Of a stretch of 64,000 bases of DNA, positions 8,881-38,565 are shown piece after piece. The notes beneath the pieces are model-generated. The model had not been told where the DNA came from, ran no database searches, and saw only the letters and a program-made list of their open reading frames with translations. Within the stretch, counting starts at the first letter, position 1. Each line of letters starts with the position of its first letter. This stretch comes from a bacterium HR15 (lineage in GTDB: Bacteria; Armatimonadota; Fimbriimonadia; Fimbriimonadales; GBS-DC). Where the stretch lies: positions 6,975 through 70,974 of the forward strand of contig BEHR01000009.1 in NCBI GenBank assembly GCA_002898555.1. Reading direction: 5' to 3'. Position numbers and translations under genes: made by a program.

Positions 8881-9696
8881 TCAAGCGTTTTCGCGTGTAG
8901 GCGAAAAACTGGCAGAAATACTGGGTCGCCGGGCGCGTGAGCCGTTGCGCGGCAGGGGTGTGACGACCGTCTCGTAACCGTTGCCCTTGCGTCGGATGTA
9001 GCCGCGCGCCTCCAGCTCCTGCAAATAGTTATAGAGGGTTTGACGCGAGCAGCCCAGCTCCGCCGCCAGTTGCGTCCGAGTCAGCGTCGGGCGCTCGTAC
9101 AACAGGTAAAGCAGCCGCTCCAGGGCGGCTTCCCTGTTACCAGGCAGGTGATTGCGCTCGTTGGCAGATGTCAGGGCGACCACCGCCTGTGACGGCTCCG
9201 AGGTCGCCACATTGCCTGCAGCTTGCTCTTCGCCATTTGCCATCCGCTCATCGCTGCCTGCAACCTGCAACGCATAGTTGCGATCCTCGCCGATGATCTC
9301 GATGAGCGCGAACATAATAATTGGCAGCGTGACGGAAAGCAGGAACGGGCGCAGGAAGACCACCGCGCTGTCGAACGCGCTGGTGGTTGCCAGCGGCTGC
9401 TGGTGCATAATGCCATAGAGGTAGTTCGCATACGCGCTGATAAAGGTTACCAGGCTCAACACTGCCCACAGGGGTGCGGTGGAGCGGCTCTGACGCTTGC
9501 GCAGTTGAATGCCATACGCCAGCCCCAAAATGCCCAAATCGATTCCCAGCGCTTGTACATAGCCCCAAAGCAGATGACCGCCCTCCAATGTGCTGAAGGT
9601 GTACGCCACATGGTGCACGCTGCCCGCCAGCACGAACAGCGTGACCAGCACCAGCAGCGCGGTCGACAACGGCATGTCTTTCAGCTGATATCGCAT
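8881..9696 (-). CDS. membrane protein (DUF2637-like 4-TM N-terminus) with C-terminal winged-helix HTH
   Basis: Start was chosen at MRYQLK (ATG 9696, GGGAGG SD), because the longer 408-aa ORF runs into ctaA. TM helices are followed by 'TLTRTQLAAELGCSRQTLYNYLQELEARGYI'. Confidence 0.6.
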   Translation of the reverse strand: MRYQLKDMPLSTALLVLVTLFVLAGSVHHVAYTFSTLEGGHLLWGYVQALGIDLGILGLAYGIQLRKRQSRSTAPLWAVLSLVTFISAYANYLYGIMHQQPLATTSAFDSAVVFLRPFLLSVTLPIIMFALIEIIGEDRNYALQVAGSDERMANGEEQAAGNVATSEPSQAVVALTSANERNHLPGNREAALERLLYLLYERPTLTRTQLAAELGCSRQTLYNYLQELEARGYIRRKGNGYETVVTPLPRNGSRARRPSISASFSPTRENA

Positions 9697-9815
9697 CGGT
9701 TGCAACCTCCCTGTCGTTTTTCTTAAGCGCGAAAGCGGATTAGGCACGCCCTCTTTGCCCGTTTCAAAGTTGAATATCCTTAATTCAAGGGGGCGATATC
9801 GAATCCTGCTCGATG

Positions 9816-10745
9816 TTAAGCAGGATGTCGGTGCATTTCGACCGCCGCTGCGGGCTGTGGCTGGGCTGTTAGCACGCCGGCGGCGAAAATCACCAGCATT
9901 ATCCACAAAAGGTCGGTCATAGCAAGGTGCGCGAGCTGCATCCATACGGGGGCTTTGAGCCACACATTGAGCGCACCCAGCAGCAGTTGCCCCACATAGA
10001 GCAAATTGAACGCTACGGCAAGGCGTAGCGTCATGCGCGTCGGTCGCTGCAGCGCCAGCGTTGTCAGCACAAGAATCATATAGACACTTACCAGAATCGC
10101 CATCCATGGATGGTAGAGGCGTAGGGCAAGCAGGGTCTGCCCGACCACGGGCGATTGCTGAATCGCGCCCAGCTGGAGCAGGGTGTCACCCAATGCCGTG
10201 ACGGCCCCCCCCATGCCCACCACCATTAGGAGCAGCAATGCGCCCAGCACACCGGCTCCCACCCAGCCTTGTCCTCGCAGGCGGAATCGCGCTCCACCCG
10301 ACGCCCAATATGCCGTTAGCGTGAAAGCACCCAGCAAAAGCAGCGTGTTGGCTAAATGCACCGCCATGACGATTGCCCGCTCGTAGGACACATTGCGCGC
10401 CACCCACTCATAACGCACCAGGCTCATGCCAACCAGTGCTTCGGTAATGATAAAGAAGAGGCTCCATAATACGCCCCGTCGCACGATATGCCCGCGAGGA
10501 TAAATACGGAACGCCCAGAGGACCATTATCAGCACCAGCAGCCCGGACAGCCCGCTCGTCAATCGATGGGTGAACTCGATGAGGGTCTCTATGGCAGGGG
10601 CGCGGGGAATAATCTCGCCATTGCAGAGGGGCCAGTGGCTGCCGCAGCCCGCCCCACTGCCCGTCGCTCGCACAAACGCGCCCCACAGGATGACCAACAC
10701 ATTGTAGCCCAGCACCAGCCAGCAAAACTTCGCAAAGCGAGTCAT
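9816..10745 (-). CDS. ctaA: heme A synthase (COX15/CtaA family)
   Basis: 'LGYNVLVILWGAFVRATGSGAGCGSHWPLCNG' is the CtaA N-terminal Cys/His motif, followed by 8 TM segments. ATG 10745 lies 9 nt after a TATCAT -10 box. Confidence 0.88.
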   Translation of the reverse strand: MTRFAKFCWLVLGYNVLVILWGAFVRATGSGAGCGSHWPLCNGEIIPRAPAIETLIEFTHRLTSGLSGLLVLIMVLWAFRIYPRGHIVRRGVLWSLFFIITEALVGMSLVRYEWVARNVSYERAIVMAVHLANTLLLLGAFTLTAYWASGGARFRLRGQGWVGAGVLGALLLLMVVGMGGAVTALGDTLLQLGAIQQSPVVGQTLLALRLYHPWMAILVSVYMILVLTTLALQRPTRMTLRLAVAFNLLYVGQLLLGALNVWLKAPVWMQLAHLAMTDLLWIMLVIFAAGVLTAQPQPAAAVEMHRHPA

Positions 10746-26096: not shown

Positions 26097-28448
26097 CTAC
26101 TCGCTCTCGCAACCATGACCAAAGTCTGCGAGAACCGCAAGAAGGTCTTCATCGTCCACAATCCCGTTCCAATCAATGTCTGCAGCGGCATCATCACTGG
26201 TACCTAAAGCCTGTAGCACTCGGAGCAGGTCTTGGTCGTCCACACAACCATCACCATTCACATCTGATAAGTAGATAATGAGGTCTTCTGGTGAATACAA
26301 GCAGCGTCCATCTTCGCCTGGTGGGGTCAATCCATCACCACAGTTCGCAGGACATTCGCCGCTTCTGAACTGACCAGGTTCACCAACCATCGGAGTGCCT
26401 CTTAACGGTGGTCCGAGATAGCCACGCGCGTCTCTGCAACCGTAATCTATTGAAACTATTTGACCACTCAGTCGTACAGGCTTATCGTCAGGCGGGTTGA
26501 TAATCTGGTAAGGCCGCGTAAAGGTTATGGTACTCCCCCTTTTAGTGAATTCTCCAACTTGAAAGTGGAGGTGAGGCCCAGTAACATCGCCTGAGGCTCC
26601 GACCTTAGCGATCGGCTGCCCTCGGCTTACCTGATCACCATTACTACCTAGGAACCCACTCAAGTGGAGATAAATGGTACCAAGGTACACTTCCGTACCA
26701 TCAAGTTTCCTAGCAATCCACGAAGCTACAAGATATATATAGTTTCCATTTGTTTCGCATTTACTACCTGTTATAATCTTGCCATCATGAGATGCCAAAA
26801 CGACTTCATTGCAGTCATTAGGTAGACCAGTATGATATCGACACTCCGCTTGAGCGCCATTGACTAAGTTAAAATCAACCGCGTAATCTCGCCCCCCTCG
26901 AGGATGGTCATCATAAGTCGAAGGCTGCCAGAGCTGACCCTGTTGCCACGGTGCAGCAAGGTTAAGCAGAAACTCTCTGACGCGATCTGGTTGATTCCCA
27001 CCCTGCGTGGTTATCGTATAAACCGCCGTAAAGGTGTCGTTGGCATTTACAGTAAACGAAATCGTTTGACTGGTGGAGAAGTCCACCCCATTCCGCTGCC
27101 ACTTCTGGAAGCGGTTCCCATTCGGAGCCGTTGCCGGGGCTGTCAGCGACACCGAAGTCCCCTGATTGTAGGTACGAGTAAACGGCGTTGTACCACTGCC
27201 CTGACCAGAGTTGTCAGGAGGCGAAACCGTTATCGAAACCCCACTACTCGGATTAGACGATTGAATAGTAATGGTGTTGGTCGGCACACCATAAACCGCC
27301 GTAAAGGTGTCGTTGGCATTTACAGTAAACGAAATCGTTTGACTGGTGGAGAAGTCCACCCCATTCCGCTGCCACTTCTGGAAGCGGTTCCCATTCGGAG
27401 CCGTTGCCGGGGCTGTCAGCGACACCGAAGTCCCCTGATTGTAGGTACGAGTAAACGGCGTTGTACCACTGCCCTGACCAGAGTTGTCAGGAGGCGAAAC
27501 CGTTATCGAAACCCCACTACTCGGATTAGACGATTGAATAGTAATGGTGTTGGTCGGCACACCATAAACCGCCGTAAAGGTGTCGTTGGCGGTTATATTA
27601 AATTCTATGTATTGGCTTGAAGAGTAAAAACTACCATTCCGTAGCCAGCGCTGAAACGGAGCCCCATTAGGCGCAGTCGGAGGCGCGGTCAACCTGAGAC
27701 GGTCCCCAGAAACATACCGCAGCGTCGTCGGAGTTGAAACGGTAAAGTTCGCAGGAACCACCGCATCTAAGTCGGGAGTATCTACACGAATACCTACACT
27801 ACCGCCACTGCCAGACGCCTCAAGCCGAAGCTGAACTACCGTGTACCCTGAAGGGGCACCGGTTTTGATTAGGTAGACCCCATACGGTATTTGCGAGTCC
27901 GCAGACCACCCTATATCCCCATTCGACCATCGGATTCGCCACCAGACCAAGTTGTTGCCTATGCGTACCGCATAAGCGGTTCCCGTTGCCCCTGCAAAAC
28001 GCGGGTTCGCTACTTCCGGGTAATTAGTGCTGGGACCCAAACGCACACGTAAACCAGCACTTCCTACATCGTCATAGACTCGCACAGGGTATGCGCCTAA
28101 GTTCGCGGTTACATTCGGGTAATAGCCTTCGCCTGGCATTGGAACCAGCCAGCGTGTGGAGCCACTGCCTTGGGCAATCCAGCCGTGCGGGTTGACACGC
28201 CAAAATCGGTAAGTGGTCCCCCCAATCGAACAGTCTTGCCAACAAGACGAGGAGGCAATTTGACCTTCGTTGCCAGCACGAATTGTGCCGATGACAGAGC
28301 CGCATGCAGTAGAGCGTACATTAACACCATCTCCAGCGTAGGTCACGCCGACGCGGTCGCCGCAATTGAGGGTCTGCGTCCAGGCAGTTAGCATTACTAT
28401 CCACCCAATGATGCCCAATCCAACAGCGCGGACGACCCTGTTCTTCAT
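26097..28448 (-). CDS. secreted SH3-like / triple beta-domain / M23 metallopeptidase / dockerin-like multidomain protein
   Basis: Start MKNRVV (ATG 28448, SD GAGGTGA). The M23 motif is 'IYLHLSGF...GQPIAKVGASGDVTGPHLHFQV'. The C-terminus reads 'DVNGDGCVDDQDLLRVLQALG...DWNGIVDDEDLLAVLADFG'. Two 91-aa units are identical. Confidence 0.85.
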   Translation of the reverse strand: MKNRVVRAVGLGIIGWIVMLTAWTQTLNCGDRVGVTYAGDGVNVRSTACGSVIGTIRAGNEGQIASSSCWQDCSIGGTTYRFWRVNPHGWIAQGSGSTRWLVPMPGEGYYPNVTANLGAYPVRVYDDVGSAGLRVRLGPSTNYPEVANPRFAGATGTAYAVRIGNNLVWWRIRWSNGDIGWSADSQIPYGVYLIKTGAPSGYTVVQLRLEASGSGGSVGIRVDTPDLDAVVPANFTVSTPTTLRYVSGDRLRLTAPPTAPNGAPFQRWLRNGSFYSSSQYIEFNITANDTFTAVYGVPTNTITIQSSNPSSGVSITVSPPDNSGQGSGTTPFTRTYNQGTSVSLTAPATAPNGNRFQKWQRNGVDFSTSQTISFTVNANDTFTAVYGVPTNTITIQSSNPSSGVSITVSPPDNSGQGSGTTPFTRTYNQGTSVSLTAPATAPNGNRFQKWQRNGVDFSTSQTISFTVNANDTFTAVYTITTQGGNQPDRVREFLLNLAAPWQQGQLWQPSTYDDHPRGGRDYAVDFNLVNGAQAECRYHTGLPNDCNEVVLASHDGKIITGSKCETNGNYIYLVASWIARKLDGTEVYLGTIYLHLSGFLGSNGDQVSRGQPIAKVGASGDVTGPHLHFQVGEFTKRGSTITFTRPYQIINPPDDKPVRLSGQIVSIDYGCRDARGYLGPPLRGTPMVGEPGQFRSGECPANCGDGLTPPGEDGRCLYSPEDLIIYLSDVNGDGCVDDQDLLRVLQALGTSDDAAADIDWNGIVDDEDLLAVLADFGHGCESE
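27018..27590 (-). repeat. perfect 273-bp tandem duplication inside the M23/dockerin gene
   Basis: 27018-27290 equals 27291-27563 base for base by my line-by-line comparison, plus a further 27 identical nt (27564-27590). It encodes two identical 91-aa domains. Confidence 0.9.
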
Positions 28449-28677
28449 GTCCGTCACCTCAAATGCGATTTTTGCACTGTAACAAGTGCTACCCATCCCA
28501 CACTTGACCTTCGCCATCATGCTCACCGTCCTTCTGCTTGATGTTGGCGAGACAGGTAAGCCTGCCTACGCCAGTGCTATTATACATCGCTGGGATAGCC
28601 CCTCCTGCAACGGGTTTTGGCGCGTAACTGATAGAAATCTATCGGAAATTTCGAATCGGACCCCCTGCACGCGAAGC

Positions 28678-31165: not shown

Positions 31166-31195
31166 TTGACAAAGCTGTCATCGATTGGGTATAAT
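31166..31195 (+). promoter_or_regulatory. sigma-70-type promoter of nosZ
   Basis: TTGACA (31166-31171), 18 nt spacer, TATAAT (31190-31195). An A/T-rich 'GAATTTTTCGAA' sits at UP-element distance. Confidence 0.75.
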
Positions 31196-31204
31196 GGATG
31201 GCGT

Positions 31205-31227
31205 CATTAGACCAAATCGGTCTAATG
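31205..31227 (+). promoter_or_regulatory. perfect 9-bp inverted repeat at the predicted 5' end of the nosZ transcript
   Basis: CATTAGACC-aaatc-GGTCTAATG, starting 10 nt after the -10 box. Confidence 0.5.
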
Positions 31228-31259
31228 AATTCGGAGACAGAGAGATGGGAGGAGATACG

Positions 31260-33242
31260 ATGAGAAGCTGGATGCGATACCTGATTGCAGGCGTGGTGTT
31301 GATTGTGTTCGTCGCGATCGTTGTGATCGTGCGCAACGCGCGTCAATCGGCTCTACCGGCTGGCTTACCCAGCGATGCGCTCGCACTTGCGCGAGAACGC
31401 GGTCTAACGCCTGACGATGTGTATGCCGCCCTGGCGACCTATGTGCCAGGAGGCAAATCCGACGAGTATGTGATGTTCGCCTCCGGCGGACACAGCGGGC
31501 AAGTCATCGCTATCGGCATCCCCTCGATGCGCATTCTGAAAGTCATCGCCGTGTTCGCTCCGGAGCCGTGGCAGGGCTATGGGTATGGCGTGGAGGAGAA
31601 CCCGCTGAACGAACTCTACGGACGCGGTCCTTATCCCGCTGCCGATACTCATCACCCTGCGTTGAGCGAGACCAACGGCGAGTACGATGGGCAGTTCCTG
31701 TTCATTGGTGACAAGGCGAACGGGCGCGTGGCGGTGATCGACCTGCGCGACTGGGAGACCAAGCAGATTGTGAAGAACCCCGTGTTTGAGAACAACCATG
31801 GCGCAGCGTTCGTCACGCCCAATACCGAGTATGTGGTGGAGGTCTCACAATACGGTTTGCCGCTGGGCAACAAGTATGCGCCCCTGGAGCGCTACAAGGA
31901 GGATTATCGCGGGCTGATTACCTTCTGGAAGTTCGACCGCAAGAAGGGGCGCATCGTGCCGGAGCAGTCTTTCGGCATCGAGGTGCCTCCTTACTGGCAG
32001 GATTTGGCGGACTGCGGCAAGGCTGCCAGCGACGGCTGGGTGTTTGTGAACTCCTTCAACACTGAGCTGGCGACAGGCGGCATCGAGAAAGGCAAGCCCC
32101 CATTTGAAGCGGGTGTTTCCCAGAACGACATGGACTACCTGCACATCATCAACTGGAGGCAGGCGGAGAAGCTGGTGCAGCAGGGTAAGTTCATCACCAT
32201 TAACGGCTTCAAAGTGCTGCCGCTGAAAGAGGCGATTGCAGGGGGCGTACTCTACTTCACGCCGGAGCCGAAAAGCCCTCACGGCGTCGATGTATGCCCA
32301 TGCGGCAAGCACATCGTAGTCGGTGGCAAGCTTGATCCGCATGTGACTATCTACAACATCGAGAAGATCAAGCAAGCGATTGCCAACAAGGACTACGAGA
32401 AGACCGATCCCTACGGCGTGCCTGTGCTGCGCTTCGACGCCACCAAAGAGGCGCAGGTGGAGGTCGGGCTGGGACCGCTGCACACGCAGTTCGACGATCA
32501 AGGCTATGCTTACACCAGCCTCTTCCTGGACACCGCGGTTGCCCGCTGGACACTGGGCGGCTGCAAATACAAGGCGCCCGAGGAGCCGTGGAAGCTGGTG
32601 GGCAAGATTCAGACCCACTACAATATCGGGCACCTGGCAGTGACCGAAGGCGACACAGTGAACCCGCAGAGCAAGTACCTCGTTGCGCTCAACAAGTGGT
32701 CGGTTGACCGCTTCACCAACACTGGTCCGCTGCTGCCCCAGAACTTACAGCTGATCGATATCAGCAACACGGGCGAGCGGATGCGCCTACTATACGACAT
32801 GCCCTTGGGCATCGGCGAGCCGCACTATGCCCAGATTATCCGCGCCGACCGTCTGAAGAGCTGGGAGGTCTATCCAGAGATAGGTTGGGACGCGCATAAG
32901 CAGGCGAAAAGCCCCTATGCCGCCACCAAAGGGCGCATCGAGGTCAGCGGCAACACCGTCACGATCTACTCCACGCTGATCCGCAGCCACTTTGAGCCAG
33001 AGCATATCAAGGTGAAGAAGGGTCAGCGTGTGGTATGGCATCTTACCAACCTGGAGCGCACGCGCGACGCCACTCACGGCTTCACCGTGCCCGGCTACGG
33101 GTTGAGCGCGAGCCTTGAACCGGGCGAAACCGTCACGGTGGAATTCGTGGCGGATAAGGAAGGGGTTTACTCCTTCTATTGCTCCGAGTTCTGCTCCGCG
33201 CTTCACCTGGAGATGATGGGCTATCTGCTGGTGGAGCCGTGA
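31260..33242 (+). CDS. nosZ: nitrous-oxide reductase, Sec-type (clade II-like)
   Basis: Carries 'AADTHHPALSETNGEYDG' (CuZ His pair) and the C-terminal CuA site 'FYCSEFCSALHLEMMG'. The N-terminus 'MRSWMRYLIAGVVLIVFVAIVVIV' has no twin-arginine motif. ATG 31260 follows GGGAGGAG. Confidence 0.93.
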   Translation: MRSWMRYLIAGVVLIVFVAIVVIVRNARQSALPAGLPSDALALARERGLTPDDVYAALATYVPGGKSDEYVMFASGGHSGQVIAIGIPSMRILKVIAVFAPEPWQGYGYGVEENPLNELYGRGPYPAADTHHPALSETNGEYDGQFLFIGDKANGRVAVIDLRDWETKQIVKNPVFENNHGAAFVTPNTEYVVEVSQYGLPLGNKYAPLERYKEDYRGLITFWKFDRKKGRIVPEQSFGIEVPPYWQDLADCGKAASDGWVFVNSFNTELATGGIEKGKPPFEAGVSQNDMDYLHIINWRQAEKLVQQGKFITINGFKVLPLKEAIAGGVLYFTPEPKSPHGVDVCPCGKHIVVGGKLDPHVTIYNIEKIKQAIANKDYEKTDPYGVPVLRFDATKEAQVEVGLGPLHTQFDDQGYAYTSLFLDTAVARWTLGGCKYKAPEEPWKLVGKIQTHYNIGHLAVTEGDTVNPQSKYLVALNKWSVDRFTNTGPLLPQNLQLIDISNTGERMRLLYDMPLGIGEPHYAQIIRADRLKSWEVYPEIGWDAHKQAKSPYAATKGRIEVSGNTVTIYSTLIRSHFEPEHIKVKKGQRVVWHLTNLERTRDATHGFTVPGYGLSASLEPGETVTVEFVADKEGVYSFYCSEFCSALHLEMMGYLLVEP

Positions 33243-33254
33243 GACCTCTCCACT

Positions 33255-33288
33255 GGGGGCAGGGGTTGCCCCCCTGCCCCATTTTTTA
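33255..33288 (+). terminator. intrinsic terminator after nosZ
   Basis: GGGGCAGGGG-ttgcc-CCCCTGCCCC followed by ATTTTTTA, 13 nt after the nosZ stop. Confidence 0.85.
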
Positions 33289-33300
33289 GAGCGCGTGTTG

Positions 33301-33380: not shown

Positions 33381-36300
33381 ATGATGAGAACGACGGTCAA
33401 TTGCCCTGGAGAGGGTCGGAACAAAGTGATGTTGCTGGTCGCGGCGCTCCTGGTGTTTGCTTCGATCTGGCTGCCCTACTGGCAGATTCACATCGTTGCG
33501 CCGCAGTACCCGAAGGGACTGAATGTCATTGTGTATGTCACGGGTGCGGGCGGCGATGTGCGCGAGGTGGATGGGTTGAACCACTACATCGGCATGCGCC
33601 CGCTGGGTGAGGCAGCACCGTTTGAGCGCAAAATCTCCATCCCTGGTTTGAGCGCGATCGCGCTCGCCCTCCTGCTGCTGATGCTGCTGCCCCGACCACG
33701 CTGGCTGCAAATTCTACTCGCGTTGCCTGTGTGGGCAGTCCCATTTGTGTTTGCAGGCGACCTCTACTACTGGCTGCGTGAATACGGCTTGAACTTGGAT
33801 CCCAAAGCACCTCTCAGCGCGATGATCAAGCCCTTCATCCCACCACTAATAGGACCGGGCAAAGTGGGGCAGTTTCAGGTCTATGCCTGGTTCCATATTG
33901 GCTACTTCATCGTGCTGATCGCAGGGGTTTTGACCTTCGTAGCGGTCTATCGCCGGCTCACCTGCAAACAACTGCAGCAGGCAGTGCCCGCTGTTACCAG
34001 AGTGGCGACCACGGTGGCATTCCTACTGGTGATGGGTCTGGCGCTGTATGGACAGGAACAGACTACCTGGGTTGTCGGTCCTCAAAGCGGTTTGAGCCTG
34101 CAGCAGGCGATTCGGCAGGCGCGCCCGGGCGACACTATTCGCGTGATCGGCGGCGAACACCGGGGCAACTTCATCGTGGATAAAACGCTCACGCTCGTGG
34201 GCGAAGGCTCCCCCGTCCTCAACGGCGAGGGGCGGGGGAGCGTCATCCGTCTGAAAGCGCCCCGATGCGTTTTGCGGGGATTCGTTATTCGCAATAGCGG
34301 GATTGTGCTCAGCACCCAGGACAGTGGCGTGCAGGTTTCCGCACCCGATTGTATCGTGGAAAATAATCGCCTCGAAAAAGTGCTTTTTGGGGTGCATTTA
34401 CAGCGTGCCCATCGAACAATCATTCGTCATAATAAAATCTATTCACACCATTTGCCTGTTGCGCGGCGCGGCGACCAGATTCGCATCTGGTACAGCCACC
34501 ATACCCGCGTTGAAGCCAATCAGGTGGTGGGTGGGCGCGACCTCGTGTTCTGGTATTCAGAGGGGTTGATCATCCGTAATAATCGCGTGCGCAACTGTCG
34601 CTATGGTGTGCATTTTATGTACTGCAACGATAGCCTCGTGGAGGGCAACGATTTAGAGGGCAACTCGGTGGGGGTTTATGTCATGTACAGCGAGGGGGTT
34701 CAGGTGCGTGCCAACCAGATACTGCGCTCGCGCGGTCCGAGCGGAATGGGGTTAGGAGTCAAAGATGGCTATCGCTTACAGATTGAGCGGAACCTTATCG
34801 CGGGCAATCGTACGGGGCTGTTCATCGATAGCGGGGAGGGGGTCTATCGGGAGAACTGGTTTATTCGCAATGATGTGGGCATCCATCTGGTGCTGGCGGT
34901 CAAGCCGAATCTGTTTCAGGGCAATCGGATGGTGGAGAATATCGAGCAGGTGCAGATGGATCGTGCCGATTCGGTGGCGGGCGTGCGCTGGGCAGGCAAC
35001 TTCTGGAGCGACTACTCCGGCTACGATGCAGATGGGGATGGTATCGGCGAGGTGCCTTATCGCGCCATGAAAGTCTTCGATCAGATTGCAGCGAGCAACA
35101 GTGCGCTTCGCTTACTAACATATAGTCCCTCCGCCCAAGCGCTCGATTTCGGAGCGCGATTGTTCCCCCTCTTCGCACCGCAGACGATGGTGACCGACGA
35201 GAAGCCCTTGACCCGTGCAGGCACACCGCCTTCCCTGCCTTTTGAGCAGCCGTTTCCCATGCGCAGCCGATGGCTACTGACCGCTCTGGGATTGCTCATG
35301 GCGGGTGTACTAAGCATGCAGGCTCCCAAGTCCTCTCGTCAAGGAAGACACCTTCGATTGCAGAAACTAATTCAACTGTCCAAGCGGTCGGACAAATCAG
35401 CAAAGTCCGAAATGAAGCCAATGGTGATTCGGGTGGAGAGGTTAACGCGCCGCTTCGGCACGCTGACGGCGGTGGATAACCTGAGTTTTATCGTGCGCGA
35501 GGGCGAAACTCTTGCTCTTTGGGGCGCGAACGGCGCAGGGAAGACGACCATCCTGCGCTGCCTGCTGGGGCTGCTGCGCTTTGAGGGCGAGGCGCAGATC
35601 CTGGGACACTCTGTCAAGCGGGAGGGCGTCATCGTGCGTCAGCAGGTCGGATATGTGCCGCAGCTGGTCTCATTGCATTCCGACCTGAGCGTGCAGGAAA
35701 CCGTTTCCTTCTATGCCCAGTTGCGCGGCGTGCCGATGGAGCGCGCGGATGCCTTGCTCAATGAATGGGAACTGCAAGCCCATCGGGAGAAGCCTATTAG
35801 CGCGCTTTCGGGTGGAATGAAGCAGAAGCTTGCGTTGGTCTTGGCGTTGCTTTCCGATCCACCTGTGCTGCTGCTGGACGAACCGACCGCCCACCTGGAC
35901 GCTGCCTCCCGTGCCGAATGGCTGGAGTTGCTCCGACGGCTGAAAGCACAGGGCAAGACCCTGCTTTTTTGCACGCACCAGCTCAACGAGGTGCGCGCCT
36001 TAGCCGACCGGGTGATCGTGTTGGAGCGTGGGCGCAAAGTGGCGGAGCTGACAGGCGCGCAGTTCACTCGACTCTGGCAACAGCATGGCAGTTTGCGCCT
36101 CTCGGTGCCGCCCGATCAGGTGGAACAAGCCCATCGGGTTCTGCAGGAAGCAGGCTACGACCCTGAAAGCACCGATGGATTGATTCTGGTGCGCCATTTA
36201 GAGGCGAAGCAGGTGGAACCGCTCCGCCTGCTGCTGCAGGCAGGCGTCGAAGTGCTGGACTATGAGTGGCGACCACCCAGCGAACCGCCCGACTGGACCC

Positions 36301-37250
36301 TTTTAGATGAAGCGACACGCTTCATGGCTCTGACCTCCTCACCAACAAGCGACGCACACCCTAACACCCCCACTAAAGGAGAGGGCAGCCCCCTACTGGC
36401 TAACAGTGAAGCATGGGGGCGATGGGGGCGGGTTTATTTGCTTGTTAGCAAAGAGGTGCGTGATGCGCGGCGCAACCGCTGGTTTCTGATGCTGATGGGT
36501 ATTTTTGTGGCACTCTCGCTGCTGCTGACCCTGTTCGGGTTAACGGGCATGGGGCAGAGTGGCGCATCGGGTTTCGGGCGCACCTTCGCCAGCCTGCTGA
36601 ACCTATCGCTGTTGATTGTACCGCTGATGGGGCTGCTGCTGGGCGCACTGAGCATTGCGGTGGAGCGCGATCAGCAAACGCTGCACACCTTGCTGGCGCA
36701 ACCGCTGACACCTGCGACCCTCGTGTTCGGCAAGTTTCTGGGCACGATGCTGACCCTGGGCGCGGCGGTGCTGATCGGCTTCGGCAGTAGCGGGCTGATC
36801 ATTTATATGTCAGGCGCGAATGTGCCGCTTGCGCCGTTCCTGGGGCAGCTGGGGCTAACCCTGCTGCTGGGCTGGAGCTGCCTCGCGCTGGGTTTGTTGG
36901 TCTCCGTGCTGGTGAAACGCGGCCCCACAGCGGTCGGCGTCGCCTTGTTGCTGTGGCTTTTCCTGACCTTTATTAGTGACTTGGGCATTATCGGCACAGC
37001 CATCGCGCTCCAACTACGGGCATCCACGCTGTTGTGGCTGACCCTGCTGAACCCGTTGCAAGTGTTCAAGGTAGCGGTCATCCAGCTGATGGAGGGCAAT
37101 CTGGAGGTGCTTGGCTCGGCAGGGTTGTATGCTCGCGATGTGCTGGGCGACGCTGTGCTACCCATCTTATCAGGTATACTTGTGGCATGGGTTGCAGTTC
37201 CGTTTCTGCTCGCTCTGGGCTGGTTCACCCGCAGGGGGGCAATCGAATGA
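33381..37250 (+). CDS. nosDFY: fused NosB-like membrane module / NosD beta-helix / NosF ABC ATPase / NosY ABC-2 permease (single 1289-aa ORF)
   Basis: No in-frame stop from 33381 to 37250.
- Codons 1-195: 4-TM module.
- Codons about 215-610: NosD motifs, including 'GNFWSDYSGYDADGDGIGEVPY'.
- One TM: 'WLLTALGLLMAGVLSM'.
- Codons 678-about 900: 'GANGAGKTT', 'LSGGMKQKLAL', 'LLLDEPTAHLD'.
- Codons about 1017-1289: NosY-like 'KEVRDARRNRWFLML' plus 6 TM.
SD GGAAGGAGG lies before the ATG. Confidence 0.85.
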   Translation: MMRTTVNCPGEGRNKVMLLVAALLVFASIWLPYWQIHIVAPQYPKGLNVIVYVTGAGGDVREVDGLNHYIGMRPLGEAAPFERKISIPGLSAIALALLLLMLLPRPRWLQILLALPVWAVPFVFAGDLYYWLREYGLNLDPKAPLSAMIKPFIPPLIGPGKVGQFQVYAWFHIGYFIVLIAGVLTFVAVYRRLTCKQLQQAVPAVTRVATTVAFLLVMGLALYGQEQTTWVVGPQSGLSLQQAIRQARPGDTIRVIGGEHRGNFIVDKTLTLVGEGSPVLNGEGRGSVIRLKAPRCVLRGFVIRNSGIVLSTQDSGVQVSAPDCIVENNRLEKVLFGVHLQRAHRTIIRHNKIYSHHLPVARRGDQIRIWYSHHTRVEANQVVGGRDLVFWYSEGLIIRNNRVRNCRYGVHFMYCNDSLVEGNDLEGNSVGVYVMYSEGVQVRANQILRSRGPSGMGLGVKDGYRLQIERNLIAGNRTGLFIDSGEGVYRENWFIRNDVGIHLVLAVKPNLFQGNRMVENIEQVQMDRADSVAGVRWAGNFWSDYSGYDADGDGIGEVPYRAMKVFDQIAASNSALRLLTYSPSAQALDFGARLFPLFAPQTMVTDEKPLTRAGTPPSLPFEQPFPMRSRWLLTALGLLMAGVLSMQAPKSSRQGRHLRLQKLIQLSKRSDKSAKSEMKPMVIRVERLTRRFGTLTAVDNLSFIVREGETLALWGANGAGKTTILRCLLGLLRFEGEAQILGHSVKREGVIVRQQVGYVPQLVSLHSDLSVQETVSFYAQLRGVPMERADALLNEWELQAHREKPISALSGGMKQKLALVLALLSDPPVLLLDEPTAHLDAASRAEWLELLRRLKAQGKTLLFCTHQLNEVRALADRVIVLERGRKVAELTGAQFTRLWQQHGSLRLSVPPDQVEQAHRVLQEAGYDPESTDGLILVRHLEAKQVEPLRLLLQAGVEVLDYEWRPPSEPPDWTLLDEATRFMALTSSPTSDAHPNTPTKGEGSPLLANSEAWGRWGRVYLLVSKEVRDARRNRWFLMLMGIFVALSLLLTLFGLTGMGQSGASGFGRTFASLLNLSLLIVPLMGLLLGALSIAVERDQQTLHTLLAQPLTPATLVFGKFLGTMLTLGAAVLIGFGSSGLIIYMSGANVPLAPFLGQLGLTLLLGWSCLALGLLVSVLVKRGPTAVGVALLLWLFLTFISDLGIIGTAIALQLRASTLLWLTLLNPLQVFKVAVIQLMEGNLEVLGSAGLYARDVLGDAVLPILSGILVAWVAVPFLLALGWFTRRGAIE

Positions 37251-37687
37251 GAGGGTTCTGGCTGCTGGTGCTGCTCGCAGGCTGCCAGCAAGCCGCTCCG
37301 CCACCTACTATTCGCTATGGCGAGGATGCCTGCGCTCACTGCCGCATGATTATCAATGAAGCGCCCTACGCCTGTGCCGTTGAAACGCAGCAGGGCGAGA
37401 TCCGCAAGTACGATGACTTCAATTGCATGTTTTTAGACAGTGGGCAGAGCAAACCCAAACGCTACTGGGTGCATGATTACAACAAGCCTGACCGATGGCT
37501 CGACGGCGTCAAAGCCTACTATGTGCGGGCAGAGGAGCTGCAAACACCGATGGGTAGCCGCACGCTGGCTGTGGCTACACGCGAGGAAGCGGAGCACAAA
37601 GCGCAATTGCTCAAGGGCAAAGTGTTCACTTTCGAACAGATTCGGCAGGAGTTCCTGCCGAGCAAACAACCAACAGACAGGAGGTAG
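37247..37687 (+). CDS. nosL: NosL copper-chaperone lipoprotein
   Basis: ATGA overlap with the preceding ORF. Lipobox 'LLVLLAGC'. 'CAHCRMII' and 'YDDFNCMF' are typical of NosL. Confidence 0.88.
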   Translation: MRGFWLLVLLAGCQQAAPPPTIRYGEDACAHCRMIINEAPYACAVETQQGEIRKYDDFNCMFLDSGQSKPKRYWVHDYNKPDRWLDGVKAYYVRAEELQTPMGSRTLAVATREEAEHKAQLLKGKVFTFEQIRQEFLPSKQPTDRR

Positions 37688-37694
37688 ATCGCTT

Positions 37695-38504
37695 ATGCGC
37701 AAATGGACGCTTGTATCGACGGGTTTTGTCATCGCGCTGACGCTCTGGAGTTGCAAAGGTGGTCAGCAGCAACAGACACAGCAACCGCCCTCTCAACCCC
37801 CTGCAACCACAACGGAGCATCCGACCACTCCACCGGCGGGACCACCACCTGCCCCGACCGATGGCACGGCGACCATCTATGGCATGGTCAAGTTCGAGGG
37901 CACACCCCCGAAACCGGAGCCGATCAACATGGGCGCGGAGCTGCAGTGTGCTGCCATGCATCCCCAACCGCCCACCCGTGAAGACCTGGTAGTGAACAAT
38001 AATGGCACGCTGCGCTGGACGCTGGTCTATGTCAAATCGGGGCTGCCTGCCAACTATAAGCCGACCGTCCCGTCCGAACCCGTGGTGCTGGATCAACAGG
38101 GCTGCGTGTTTCACCCCCATGTGGTGGGGGTTGTAGCAGGGCAGAAAATCATCTTTCGCAACAGCGACCCTGTGCTGCATAACACGCGCGGCACCTCCAA
38201 GAACAACGGCTCCTTCAACTACACACAGCCCCAGAAAGGGCAGGAGAGCGAGCATGTCTTCAAAAATCCCGAACTGGGGATCAAGACGGTGTGCGATGTG
38301 CATCCATGGATGCTGAGTTATATCCATGTGCTGCCGCACCCCTTCTTTGCCGTGACGGGCGAGGACGGGAGCTTCACCATCAAGGGGTTGCCACCGGGCA
38401 AGTACACGCTGGAGTTCGTGCATGAGAAGCTCGGTACCAAGACCGTCGAGGTGGAGGCGAAGGCAAATGCGGTGACGCAGACGGAGGTCGTGTTTAAACA
38501 ATAA
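37695..38504 (+). CDS. cupredoxin-like (amicyanin-type Cu site) lipoprotein with C-terminal CarboxypepD_reg-like domain
   Basis: SD GGAGG. Lipobox 'LTLWSC' and a Pro/Thr/Gln-rich linker. Candidate type-1 Cu ligands are 'VLHNTRG' and 'CDVHPWM' (C-x2-H-P-x-M, as in amicyanin). The C-terminus reads 'DGSFTIKGLPPGKYTLEF'. Confidence 0.65.
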   Translation: MRKWTLVSTGFVIALTLWSCKGGQQQQTQQPPSQPPATTTEHPTTPPAGPPPAPTDGTATIYGMVKFEGTPPKPEPINMGAELQCAAMHPQPPTREDLVVNNNGTLRWTLVYVKSGLPANYKPTVPSEPVVLDQQGCVFHPHVVGVVAGQKIIFRNSDPVLHNTRGTSKNNGSFNYTQPQKGQESEHVFKNPELGIKTVCDVHPWMLSYIHVLPHPFFAVTGEDGSFTIKGLPPGKYTLEFVHEKLGTKTVEVEAKANAVTQTEVVFKQ

Positions 38505-38565
38505 CAACCTTGTCGGATACTCGCCTACAGAGGCATCCTTGCGATTGCGCAGGGATGGAAGCGGG

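Follow-up and report, generated by a model that had tools for sequence, protein, structure and literature searches.

We analyzed a 64,000-nucleotide (nt) stretch of bacterium HR15 DNA (the window; coordinates are window positions unless a contig is named) and focused on the last gene of its nos cluster, an open reading frame at 37695-38504 on the forward strand that reads through as 269 amino acids (aa) with no internal stop. The product is a predicted lipoprotein whose cupredoxin domain keeps a complete set of type-1 copper ligands, it belongs to a branch of its family that is found with nos genes, and it probably acts in the periplasm as a dedicated donor of electrons to CuA of NosZ, the N2O reductase encoded by the same cluster. 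The cluster comprises the following features.

31166-31195, forward strand: sigma-70-like promoter before nosZ (TTGACA-18-TATAAT, 12 of 12 matches; a match to the consensus only)
31185-33242, forward strand: nosZ, Sec-dependent clade II N2O reductase with a C-terminal CuA domain (TIGR04246, 838.5 bits against a cut-off of 625)
33256-33290, forward strand: terminator-like hairpin and T-run 3′ of nosZ (10-bp stem with 9 GC pairs, then ATTTTTT)
33381-37250, forward strand: 1289-codon fusion reading frame with nosB-like, nosD, nosF, and nosY parts (NosD TIGR04247, 402 bits; ABC_tran; ABC2_membrane_2)
37247-37687, forward strand: nosL, copper chaperone lipoprotein (PF05573 NosL, E = 4e-12; its ATG overlaps the stop of the fusion gene)
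37680-37684, forward strand: Shine-Dalgarno sequence GGAGG of the cupredoxin gene, as read from the sequence (within the end of nosL, 10 nt 5′ of the ATG)

The nosZ product matches the domain models nos_propeller, Cupredoxin_1, and COX2, and its real start probably lies near 31260, because the products of relatives measure 660 to 664 aa. Relatives of the fusion reading frame, in which the nosB-like part is the membrane part, are likewise one gene (1273 to 1300 aa), and the start of nosL was placed from its LLAGC lipobox and from relatives of 149 to 168 aa. A first-pass annotation of this DNA had described the cupredoxin gene as lying close behind the nosL stop with a Shine-Dalgarno sequence of its own, and so it does: the nosL stop (TAG, 37685-37687) and the cupredoxin ATG at 37695 are 7 nt apart. 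Because of this short gap, the Shine-Dalgarno sequence inside nosL, and the lack of any promoter-like site between the two genes in a consensus scan, nosL and the cupredoxin gene are likely co-transcribed. The next gene is aspS; ahead of it, past the cupredoxin stop, is an imperfect inverted repeat with no T-run (38532-38556) that was not flagged by the terminator scan. No gene of plausible size with a CxxCH (heme c) or ferredoxin motif lies within about 13 kb of the cluster in either direction, and the genome, which derives from a hot-spring metagenome and is 98% complete, yielded no Fer4_5 domain (NapH/NosH/NosR type) and no NosC, NosGH, or NosR-type gene. Together with the TIGR04246 match, these absences bear out the earlier description of a clade II-like cluster that has neither NosC nor NosGH.

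The cupredoxin gene itself divides into the following parts.

37695-37754, forward strand: signal peptide with lipobox, aa 1-20 (lipidation predicted on Cys20)
37755-37868, forward strand: putative P/T/Q-rich flexible tether, aa 21-58 (from composition and low model confidence)
37869-38072, forward strand: N-terminal transthyretin-like (CarboxypepD_reg) strands and a loop with invariant Cys85, aa 59-126
38073-38333, forward strand: type-1 copper cupredoxin domain, aa 127-213 (Foldseek, VIA, and profile matches; invariant ligands)
38178-38180, 38292-38294, 38301-38303, and 38310-38312, forward strand: codons of the predicted ligands H162, C200, H203, and M206, respectively
38334-38504, forward strand: C-terminal transthyretin-like strands, aa 214-269, and the stop codon (PF13620; structure matches)

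The N terminus runs from MRK through a hydrophobic core to L-W-S-C20. Tryptophan at position −2 is atypical of the lipobox pattern [LVI][ASTVI][GAS]C, but aligned homologs carry LWGC, FTGC, or the canonical LAGC in the same place and the lipobox is kept in relatives (L001, P0007, P0010, and P0014), in agreement with its original identification. The long Q/P/T-rich tether noted at the same time is reflected in the composition of the next 38 aa (11 P, 8 T, and 7 Q), where the predicted local distance difference test score (pLDDT) of an AlphaFold2 model is 53 to 79. This lipoprotein tether appears to be specific to the window lineage, as sister copies carry plain signal peptides.

Over the whole protein the model has a pLDDT of 90, with values above 93 for residues 55 to 269. 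Residues 127 to 213 superpose on plastocyanin, amicyanin, the purple cupredoxin 5fc9, and the tethered C-terminal cupredoxin of a nitrite reductase (NirK; 6hbe) with Z scores of 11.5 to 12.9 and root mean square deviations (rmsd) of 1.5 to 2.1 Å; pseudoazurin is also among the structure matches, in which 82 to 99 residues align (Foldseek, VIA-align), and Foldseek assigns a probability of 1.00 and a template modeling score of ∼0.7 relative to the targets. The cupredoxin fold that the first-pass annotation had marked for checking is thereby confirmed. His162 lies within PVLHNTRG, and the loop C200-D-V-H203-P-W-M206 supplies the remaining three. These four residues along with C85, C137, and N163 are invariant in an alignment of 42 homologs, present in 100% of 82 locus-derived copies, and intact in 236 of 242 database homologs, a conservation that is far beyond chance and that substantiates what had been proposed as a candidate type-1 copper ligand set. 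Judging from the superposition on solved cupredoxins, the ligand side chains would converge on one site, and we predict copper binding by H162, C200, H203, and M206. The other conserved pair, C85 and C137, probably forms a disulfide that fixes an extra loop to the cupredoxin.

The remainder of the protein forms a second domain. CarboxypepD_reg (PF13620) matches aa 219 to 265 (E = 1.4e-7; 32.2 bits, just under the Pfam cut-off of 32.3), and in VIA the transthyretin-like matches align ∼80 residues spread over model positions 59 to 269; for example, a domain of human carboxypeptidase D (5aq0_B) matches with a Z score of 10.4 and an rmsd of 1.9 Å, with 79 of 82 residues aligned. Because these matches span the whole range with only ∼80 residues aligned, the model places the cupredoxin (aa 127 to 213) inside a transthyretin-like sandwich made up of aa 59 to 126 and 214 to 269. 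The CarboxypepD_reg-like sandwich of the first-pass annotation is present, but it does not stand beside the cupredoxin as had been supposed; the cupredoxin appears to be inserted into it.

Sequence comparison sets the protein apart from the familiar small blue copper proteins. Against solved structures, a profile of the family best matches 5fc9, the purple cupredoxin of Nitrosopumilus (E = 1.7e-5), and 9cck, the C-terminal cupredoxin of a Nitrosopumilus multicopper oxidase/NirK (E = 4e-5), and the His and Cys-x2-His loop align with their counterparts in both; Met206 aligns with a methionine in 9cck, where 5fc9 has arginine. The Pfam cupredoxin model Copper-bind (PF00127) gives no match at E ≤ 0.1, Pfam and NCBIfam show only the CarboxypepD_reg part and no cupredoxin model, and PF00127 is carried by only 12 to 33% of members in two related Atlas clusters. 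The family thus appears to lie effectively outside current Pfam cupredoxin models. Amicyanins score worse than the purple cupredoxin and NirK domains (profile E = 0.003 to 0.5, 16 to 21% identity), which rules out membership in the amicyanin family. The former label "amicyanin-type" holds for the general fold (1aac, Z score of 11.5, rmsd of 2.0 Å over 86 residues; plastocyanin, Z scores of 12.1 to 12.3) and for the His...Cys-x2-His-x2-Met loop, which has the spacing of amicyanin C-T-P-H-P-F-M (as quoted in the first-pass annotation) and an asparagine after the first histidine; it does not hold as a family assignment. The gene's neighbors are nos genes, not mau genes. Methylamine dehydrogenase (PF02975) also has no match in the genome, but this is weak evidence, as control genomes were silent too.

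Beyond its low identity to amicyanin, plastocyanin, and pseudoazurin (only 16 to 24%), the protein differs from small blue copper proteins in the predicted nesting within a transthyretin-like sandwich, the extra loop of ∼55 residues, the invariant cysteine pair, the lipoprotein tether, and its presumed partner, a clade II NosZ. Its closest relatives among solved structures, the cupredoxins of three-domain NirK from Thermus scotoductus (6hbe, Z score of 12.9) and Nitrosopumilus (9cck, Z score of 11.6), are tethered electron-donor domains, and the 9cck loop reads C-T-L-H-P-W-M where the window protein has C-D-V-H-P-W-M. Those domains are covalently fused, built-in donors to a copper enzyme, whereas the carrier in the window stands alone as a lipoprotein and has an additional scaffold domain.

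The family to which the protein belongs is large (12,983 representatives at 50% identity with E ≤ 0.001, and 1,254 with E ≤ 1e-30), has no family name, and is annotated as "plastocyanin," "carboxypeptidase regulatory-like domain-containing," or "hypothetical." We clustered gene neighbors at 84 loci (80 from GTDB species representatives and four from close relatives). Downstream on the same strand these include CtaA (40 loci) and COX1 (24 loci) along with COX3 and DUF420, COX2 is also found adjoining the family gene, and cytochrome c or cytochrome b genes lie upstream. Among 108 copies from all loci, 72 are in aa3 oxidase (cox) clusters, 11 are nos linked, 15 are neither, and 10 are on short contigs. 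In the eight cox loci whose gene order we read, seven from family f33 of the same phylum and that of Fervidibacter sacchari (P0020), the copy stands directly 5′ of COX2, the CuA subunit; CtaA, COX1, COX3, and DUF420 lie farther downstream, and cytochrome b or c is encoded upstream; the F. sacchari order is multiheme cytochrome, family gene, COX2, COX1, CtaA, UbiA, COX3, COX3, COX4. Because two-thirds of the copies are cox linked and COX2 adjoins them, we associate the family as a whole with the aa3 oxidase subunit that bears CuA. Only one nos-linked copy occurs among the best 80 GTDB loci and one among the best 80 metagenome loci, counts from pattern-limited scans of those best loci that do not represent the true nos-linked fraction.

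Several variants of the family were seen along the way. A short subfamily of ∼180 to 230 aa in Armatimonadota (L109 to L116, from genomes G209, G165, G052, G112, G036, G154, G028, and G002) has no Cys85 loop but retains both HN...C-x2-H-x2-M and the nested architecture; seven of its loci (L109 to L113, L115, and L116) have no nos or cox neighbor by the queries used, and L114 (G154) has two CuA-like reading frames nearby. Other variants, seen among P0122, P0009, P0123, P0141, P0165, P0174, L044, L055, L056, L058, L070, and L082, are proteins with two modules, giant proteins of 1,800 to 2,000 aa with the module at the C terminus, and tandem double copies in several cox loci.

The copy in the window belongs to a different part of the family. 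Its closest relatives (P0003, P0004, and P0010; 50 to 82% identity) sit in clusters of nosZ, a nosBDFY fusion, nosL, and the cupredoxin gene with differing flanks. We surveyed 301 genomes of the same phylum, 10 of which carry NosZ. In six of these 10 (the window genome, G119, G128, G137, G164, and G200) a full-length family member lies ∼5 kb 3′ of nosZ and directly after nosL, and in G110 the cluster is split over two contigs in an arrangement consistent with this. Within f33, five of six genomes with nosZ have two copies, one cox linked (cytochrome b ... cupredoxin, COX2, COX1, CtaA, COX3) and one nos linked, and the sixth has the nos-linked copy only. Eight f33 genomes that lack nosZ have one full copy each, which is cox linked at both loci fetched (G077 and G101). 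Copy number in f33 therefore tracks nosZ.

Nos-linked copies also group in a 108-row tree (2 label changes, against a mean of 10.7 after shuffling), and in a 52-row LG+G4 tree all 11 fall on one side of a branch with a Shimodaira-Hasegawa-like approximate likelihood ratio test (SH-aLRT) support of 84. They share the residues F139, F154, R165, G195, and H211, each of which occurs in at most 8% of 71 cox-linked copies, where Y139 (99%), I154, H165, M195, and G211 stand instead. The window protein carries all five and belongs to this branch. Cox-linked paralogs such as P0020 share its nested architecture, ligands, and Cys85-Cys137 pair at 47 to 53% identity and differ in their aa3 oxidase context and in these positions (Y/I/H/M/G versus F/F/R/G/H). 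At least four of the five signature residues are present in 59 of 242 close database homologs, a list biased toward the query. Signature carriers found before this screen (P0006, P0011, P0012, and P0022) all follow nosL. For four further proteins, the context was looked up after the signature had been defined: P0028, P0055, and P0097 carry it and stand directly after nosL, and P0020 does not carry it and stands before COX2. With P0003, P0004, and P0010 included, 10 of 10 signature proteins looked up follow nosL.

Counting seven further genome loci, there are 17 nos-linked loci in all, from Armatimonadota and Planctomycetota (the P0097 contig bears Planctomycete-type PSCyt/PSD1/DUF1501 genes), with differing flanks and varying degrees of nosB/D/F/Y fusion. 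The first-pass annotation had named wide distribution with no nos association as a sign against its proposal. The family is indeed widespread and mostly oxidase linked; the branch that includes the window protein, however, appears to be distinct in both phylogeny and residues and strictly nos linked. Nor is the arrangement the one-off that "an unusual solution" for a clade II-like cluster would imply, as many clade II nos clusters share it. What appears to be an independent case comes from G002, a genome of another family, where the gene directly 5′ of nosZ encodes a lipoprotein (31% identity) that has this nested architecture as well, together with HN...C-x2-H-x2-M and a P/T/A-rich tether.

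Related clusters vary in other ways. In the G002 cluster (locus L095, contig C6), the distant lipoprotein cupredoxin/CarboxypepD_reg gene upstream of nosZ occupies 9099-9899 on the reverse strand, and a 493-aa Fer4_5 membrane protein is encoded beyond nosL on the opposite strand (482-1963, forward). An Rrf2-family regulator gene lies directly 5′ of nosZ at L004 (2891-3355), L202 (193-555), L203 (1395-1844), and L095 (9996-10565, in divergent orientation relative to nosZ); upstream of nosZ in the window there is carA on the opposite strand and no Rrf2-family gene. Comparison of the window fusion gene (33381-37250) with L197, L200, L202, L203, and L204 shows that the degree of nosB/D/F/Y fusion differs: the full BDFY fusion of 1273 to 1300 aa occurs in the window, L001, L002, and L004, L200 has B separate, D and F fused, and Y separate, and L202, L203, P0055, and L204 begin with a gene of 875 to 1011 aa that matches NosD and ABC_tran and has room for a NosB-like part, with Y separate.

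The respiratory inventory of the window genome provides possible partners for the protein. Exactly one family member, the nos-linked gene, was found. Contig C3 carries alternative complex III (ACIII) in a cluster with a caa3 oxidase, and C21 carries a Rieske and cytochrome b/c complex. A triheme cytochrome c gene followed by narG-, narH-, and narJ-like genes occupies C31:29367-36538, and NirK was not found in the genome; because nar-like genes and nosZ are present and NirK was not found, the gene content suggests a truncated pathway of nitrate reduction and N2O reduction. An aa3 oxidase is encoded at C15:10900-14900 (COX2, COX1, COX3, COX3) without the usual cupredoxin gene 5′ of COX2, and its COX2 and COX1 are 43% and 46% identical, respectively, to those of cox clusters that usually carry the family gene.

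We regard the fold, the conservation of the ligands, the linkage of the genes, and the nos-specific clade of paralogs as established and consider the protein a probable dedicated type-1 copper donor to NosZ. The candidate role given in the first-pass annotation is thus supported as a reading by the nos-linked branch, the fold, and the ligands, and we infer both the upstream reductant and the electron transfer to NosZ. After Sec export and lipidation on Cys20, the protein would be anchored to the membrane through its flexible tether of ∼38 residues. The cupredoxin, set in a rigid transthyretin-like sandwich, would hold one copper (His162, Cys200, His203, and Met206), which a quinol-oxidizing complex, either the Rieske/cytochrome b-c complex or ACIII, would reduce. 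Single electrons would then pass to CuA of NosZ, which works as a head-to-tail dimer, and on to CuZ, where N2O would be reduced to N2. Such a carrier would replace the NosC and NosGH/NosR modules of other nos clusters.

Pseudoazurin as a donor applies to clade I NosZ. Either pseudoazurin or cytochrome c has been suggested as the NosZ donor (PMC9240420), and in Gram-positive bacteria a gene for a lipoprotein cytochrome c, NosC, stands before each clade II nosZ; other clade II nos clusters also encode NosC beside nosZ (PMC3475470). Like the protein described here, NosC is a membrane-anchored periplasmic one-electron carrier of a clade II nos cluster that is presumed to feed NosZ; unlike it, NosC carries heme c and is not homologous to the type-1 copper protein, and its gene precedes nosZ, whereas the cupredoxin gene in the window follows nosL. 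The auracyanins of Chloroflexus and Roseiflexus resemble the window protein in its proposed role; they serve photosynthetic or respiratory chains and are not known to be linked to nos. They are membrane-tethered, single-domain, azurin-like proteins. As periplasmic blue copper proteins they accept electrons from ACIII (PMC10873879, PMC7439408), a complex that the window genome also encodes.

Several observations weigh against a dedicated donor. Two genomes with nosZ, G135 and G181 (nosZ on contig fragment), have no family member, because of which the carrier appears not to be universally required. Support for the nos clade is moderate, at an SH-aLRT of 84, and related genomes are not independent observations. 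Other candidate donors are encoded in the genome: several cytochromes of the c type and another small cupredoxin, of 165 aa, which is dockerin tailed and lies on C11 in a nonrespiratory context. The single family copy might also, or instead, serve the C15 aa3 oxidase, because that cluster has no cupredoxin of its own. Finally, the gene stands at the maturation end of the cluster, after nosDFY-L, and a strong terminator-like hairpin parts it from nosZ, a position that would also suit an assembly factor. As a separate observation, the second cupredoxin (C11:5831-6328) shares a similar dockerin-like tail (DDADLL.VLFNFG...C) with the secreted products of C11:1394-2251, C11:10254-11594, and window 26097-28526 (reverse strand); the tail may serve this lineage as a signal for sorting or anchoring.

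The last two points against a dedicated donor each lead to an alternative. An unlikely one is that the protein is a general respiratory carrier whose real partner is the aa3 oxidase, with its place behind nosL due to shared regulation or chance, or that it serves both enzymes unspecifically. Most family members are cox linked, and the genome combines a single copy with a C15 oxidase that lacks one. The window copy nonetheless belongs to the nos-linked branch with all five diagnostic residues, the nos-linked copy in f33 sits beside a cox-linked copy and appears only with nosZ, and the 10 signature proteins follow nosL within unrelated flanks. Since no copy accompanies the C15 oxidase, the protein may serve both oxidase and NosZ.

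We give slightly less credence still to a copper-handling or maturation factor that delivers copper to CuA (or CuZ) or keeps the site reduced, acting with NosL and NosDFY or with CtaA/Sco-type factors. This would fit a gene directly after nosL, in the maturation part and beyond the hairpin 3′ of nosZ, as well as the cox-cluster copies near COX2, CtaA, and, at a distance, SCO1/SenC, and the structure matches include chaperone or metal-binding proteins (CupA 4f2e, Z score of 9.5; FtrB 8vuk, Z score of 11.4; an EfeO domain, Z score of 9.8). However, the complete His/Cys/His/Met set with C-x2-H-x2-M and His-Asn is a hallmark of buried, tight type-1 electron-transfer sites, and electron carriers and tethered donor domains make up the top structure and sequence matches. 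The ligand sets of known CuA chaperones are different, Met/His in PCuAC and CxxxC plus His in Sco, which also counts against such a factor. Some other redox role, such as an NO- or O2-scavenging copper protein that protects NosZ (like the Nitrosopumilus purple cupredoxin) or a redox sensor, would draw on 5fc9 as the best sequence match of solved structure and on the unexplained extra transthyretin-like domain, but it is highly improbable, since 5fc9 has arginine where the family keeps the invariant axial Met206 of a classical site and since the family is linked to CuA-bearing terminal reductases rather than to NO-handling genes.

Cupredoxin donors and cluster-encoded NosZ donors are known kinds already. 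What seems new is the nested cupredoxin/transthyretin family, with no name or Pfam cupredoxin match and with a dominant COX2 linkage, and, within it, a branch that is defined by residues and dedicated to those clade II nos clusters that are without NosC, NosGH, or NosR. We found no description of the family, or of any clade II nos cluster with a cupredoxin gene, in the searchable full-text literature, which does not cover subscription journals. A broader proposal, which we put forward tentatively and regard as somewhat likelier to need revision than to stand whole, is that the family is a major unrecognized class of periplasmic carriers for CuA-bearing terminal reductases, serving aa3 oxidases in Acidobacteriota, Gemmatimonadota, Planctomycetota, Omnitrophota, Rhodothermota, and Armatimonadota and clade II NosZ through a dedicated branch. 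The partner, oxidase or NosZ, would be set by residues 139, 154, 165, 195, and 211 around the copper site, and the transthyretin-like domain would be a docking or spacing module.

To our knowledge, the electron input of clade II N2O reductases is known only for systems with NosC, NosGH, or a bc complex, and many minimal clade II clusters, including the one in the window, show no recognized electron input. For such clusters, a blue copper protein that is conserved and encoded in the cluster itself is a concrete and testable donor candidate, and the five-residue signature can be used to annotate them in metagenomes, which matters for judging which environmental carriers of nosZ can actually respire N2O, a greenhouse gas. 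With family genes 5′ of COX2 in several phyla that are abundant in soil and water, a common respiratory component has probably been overlooked.

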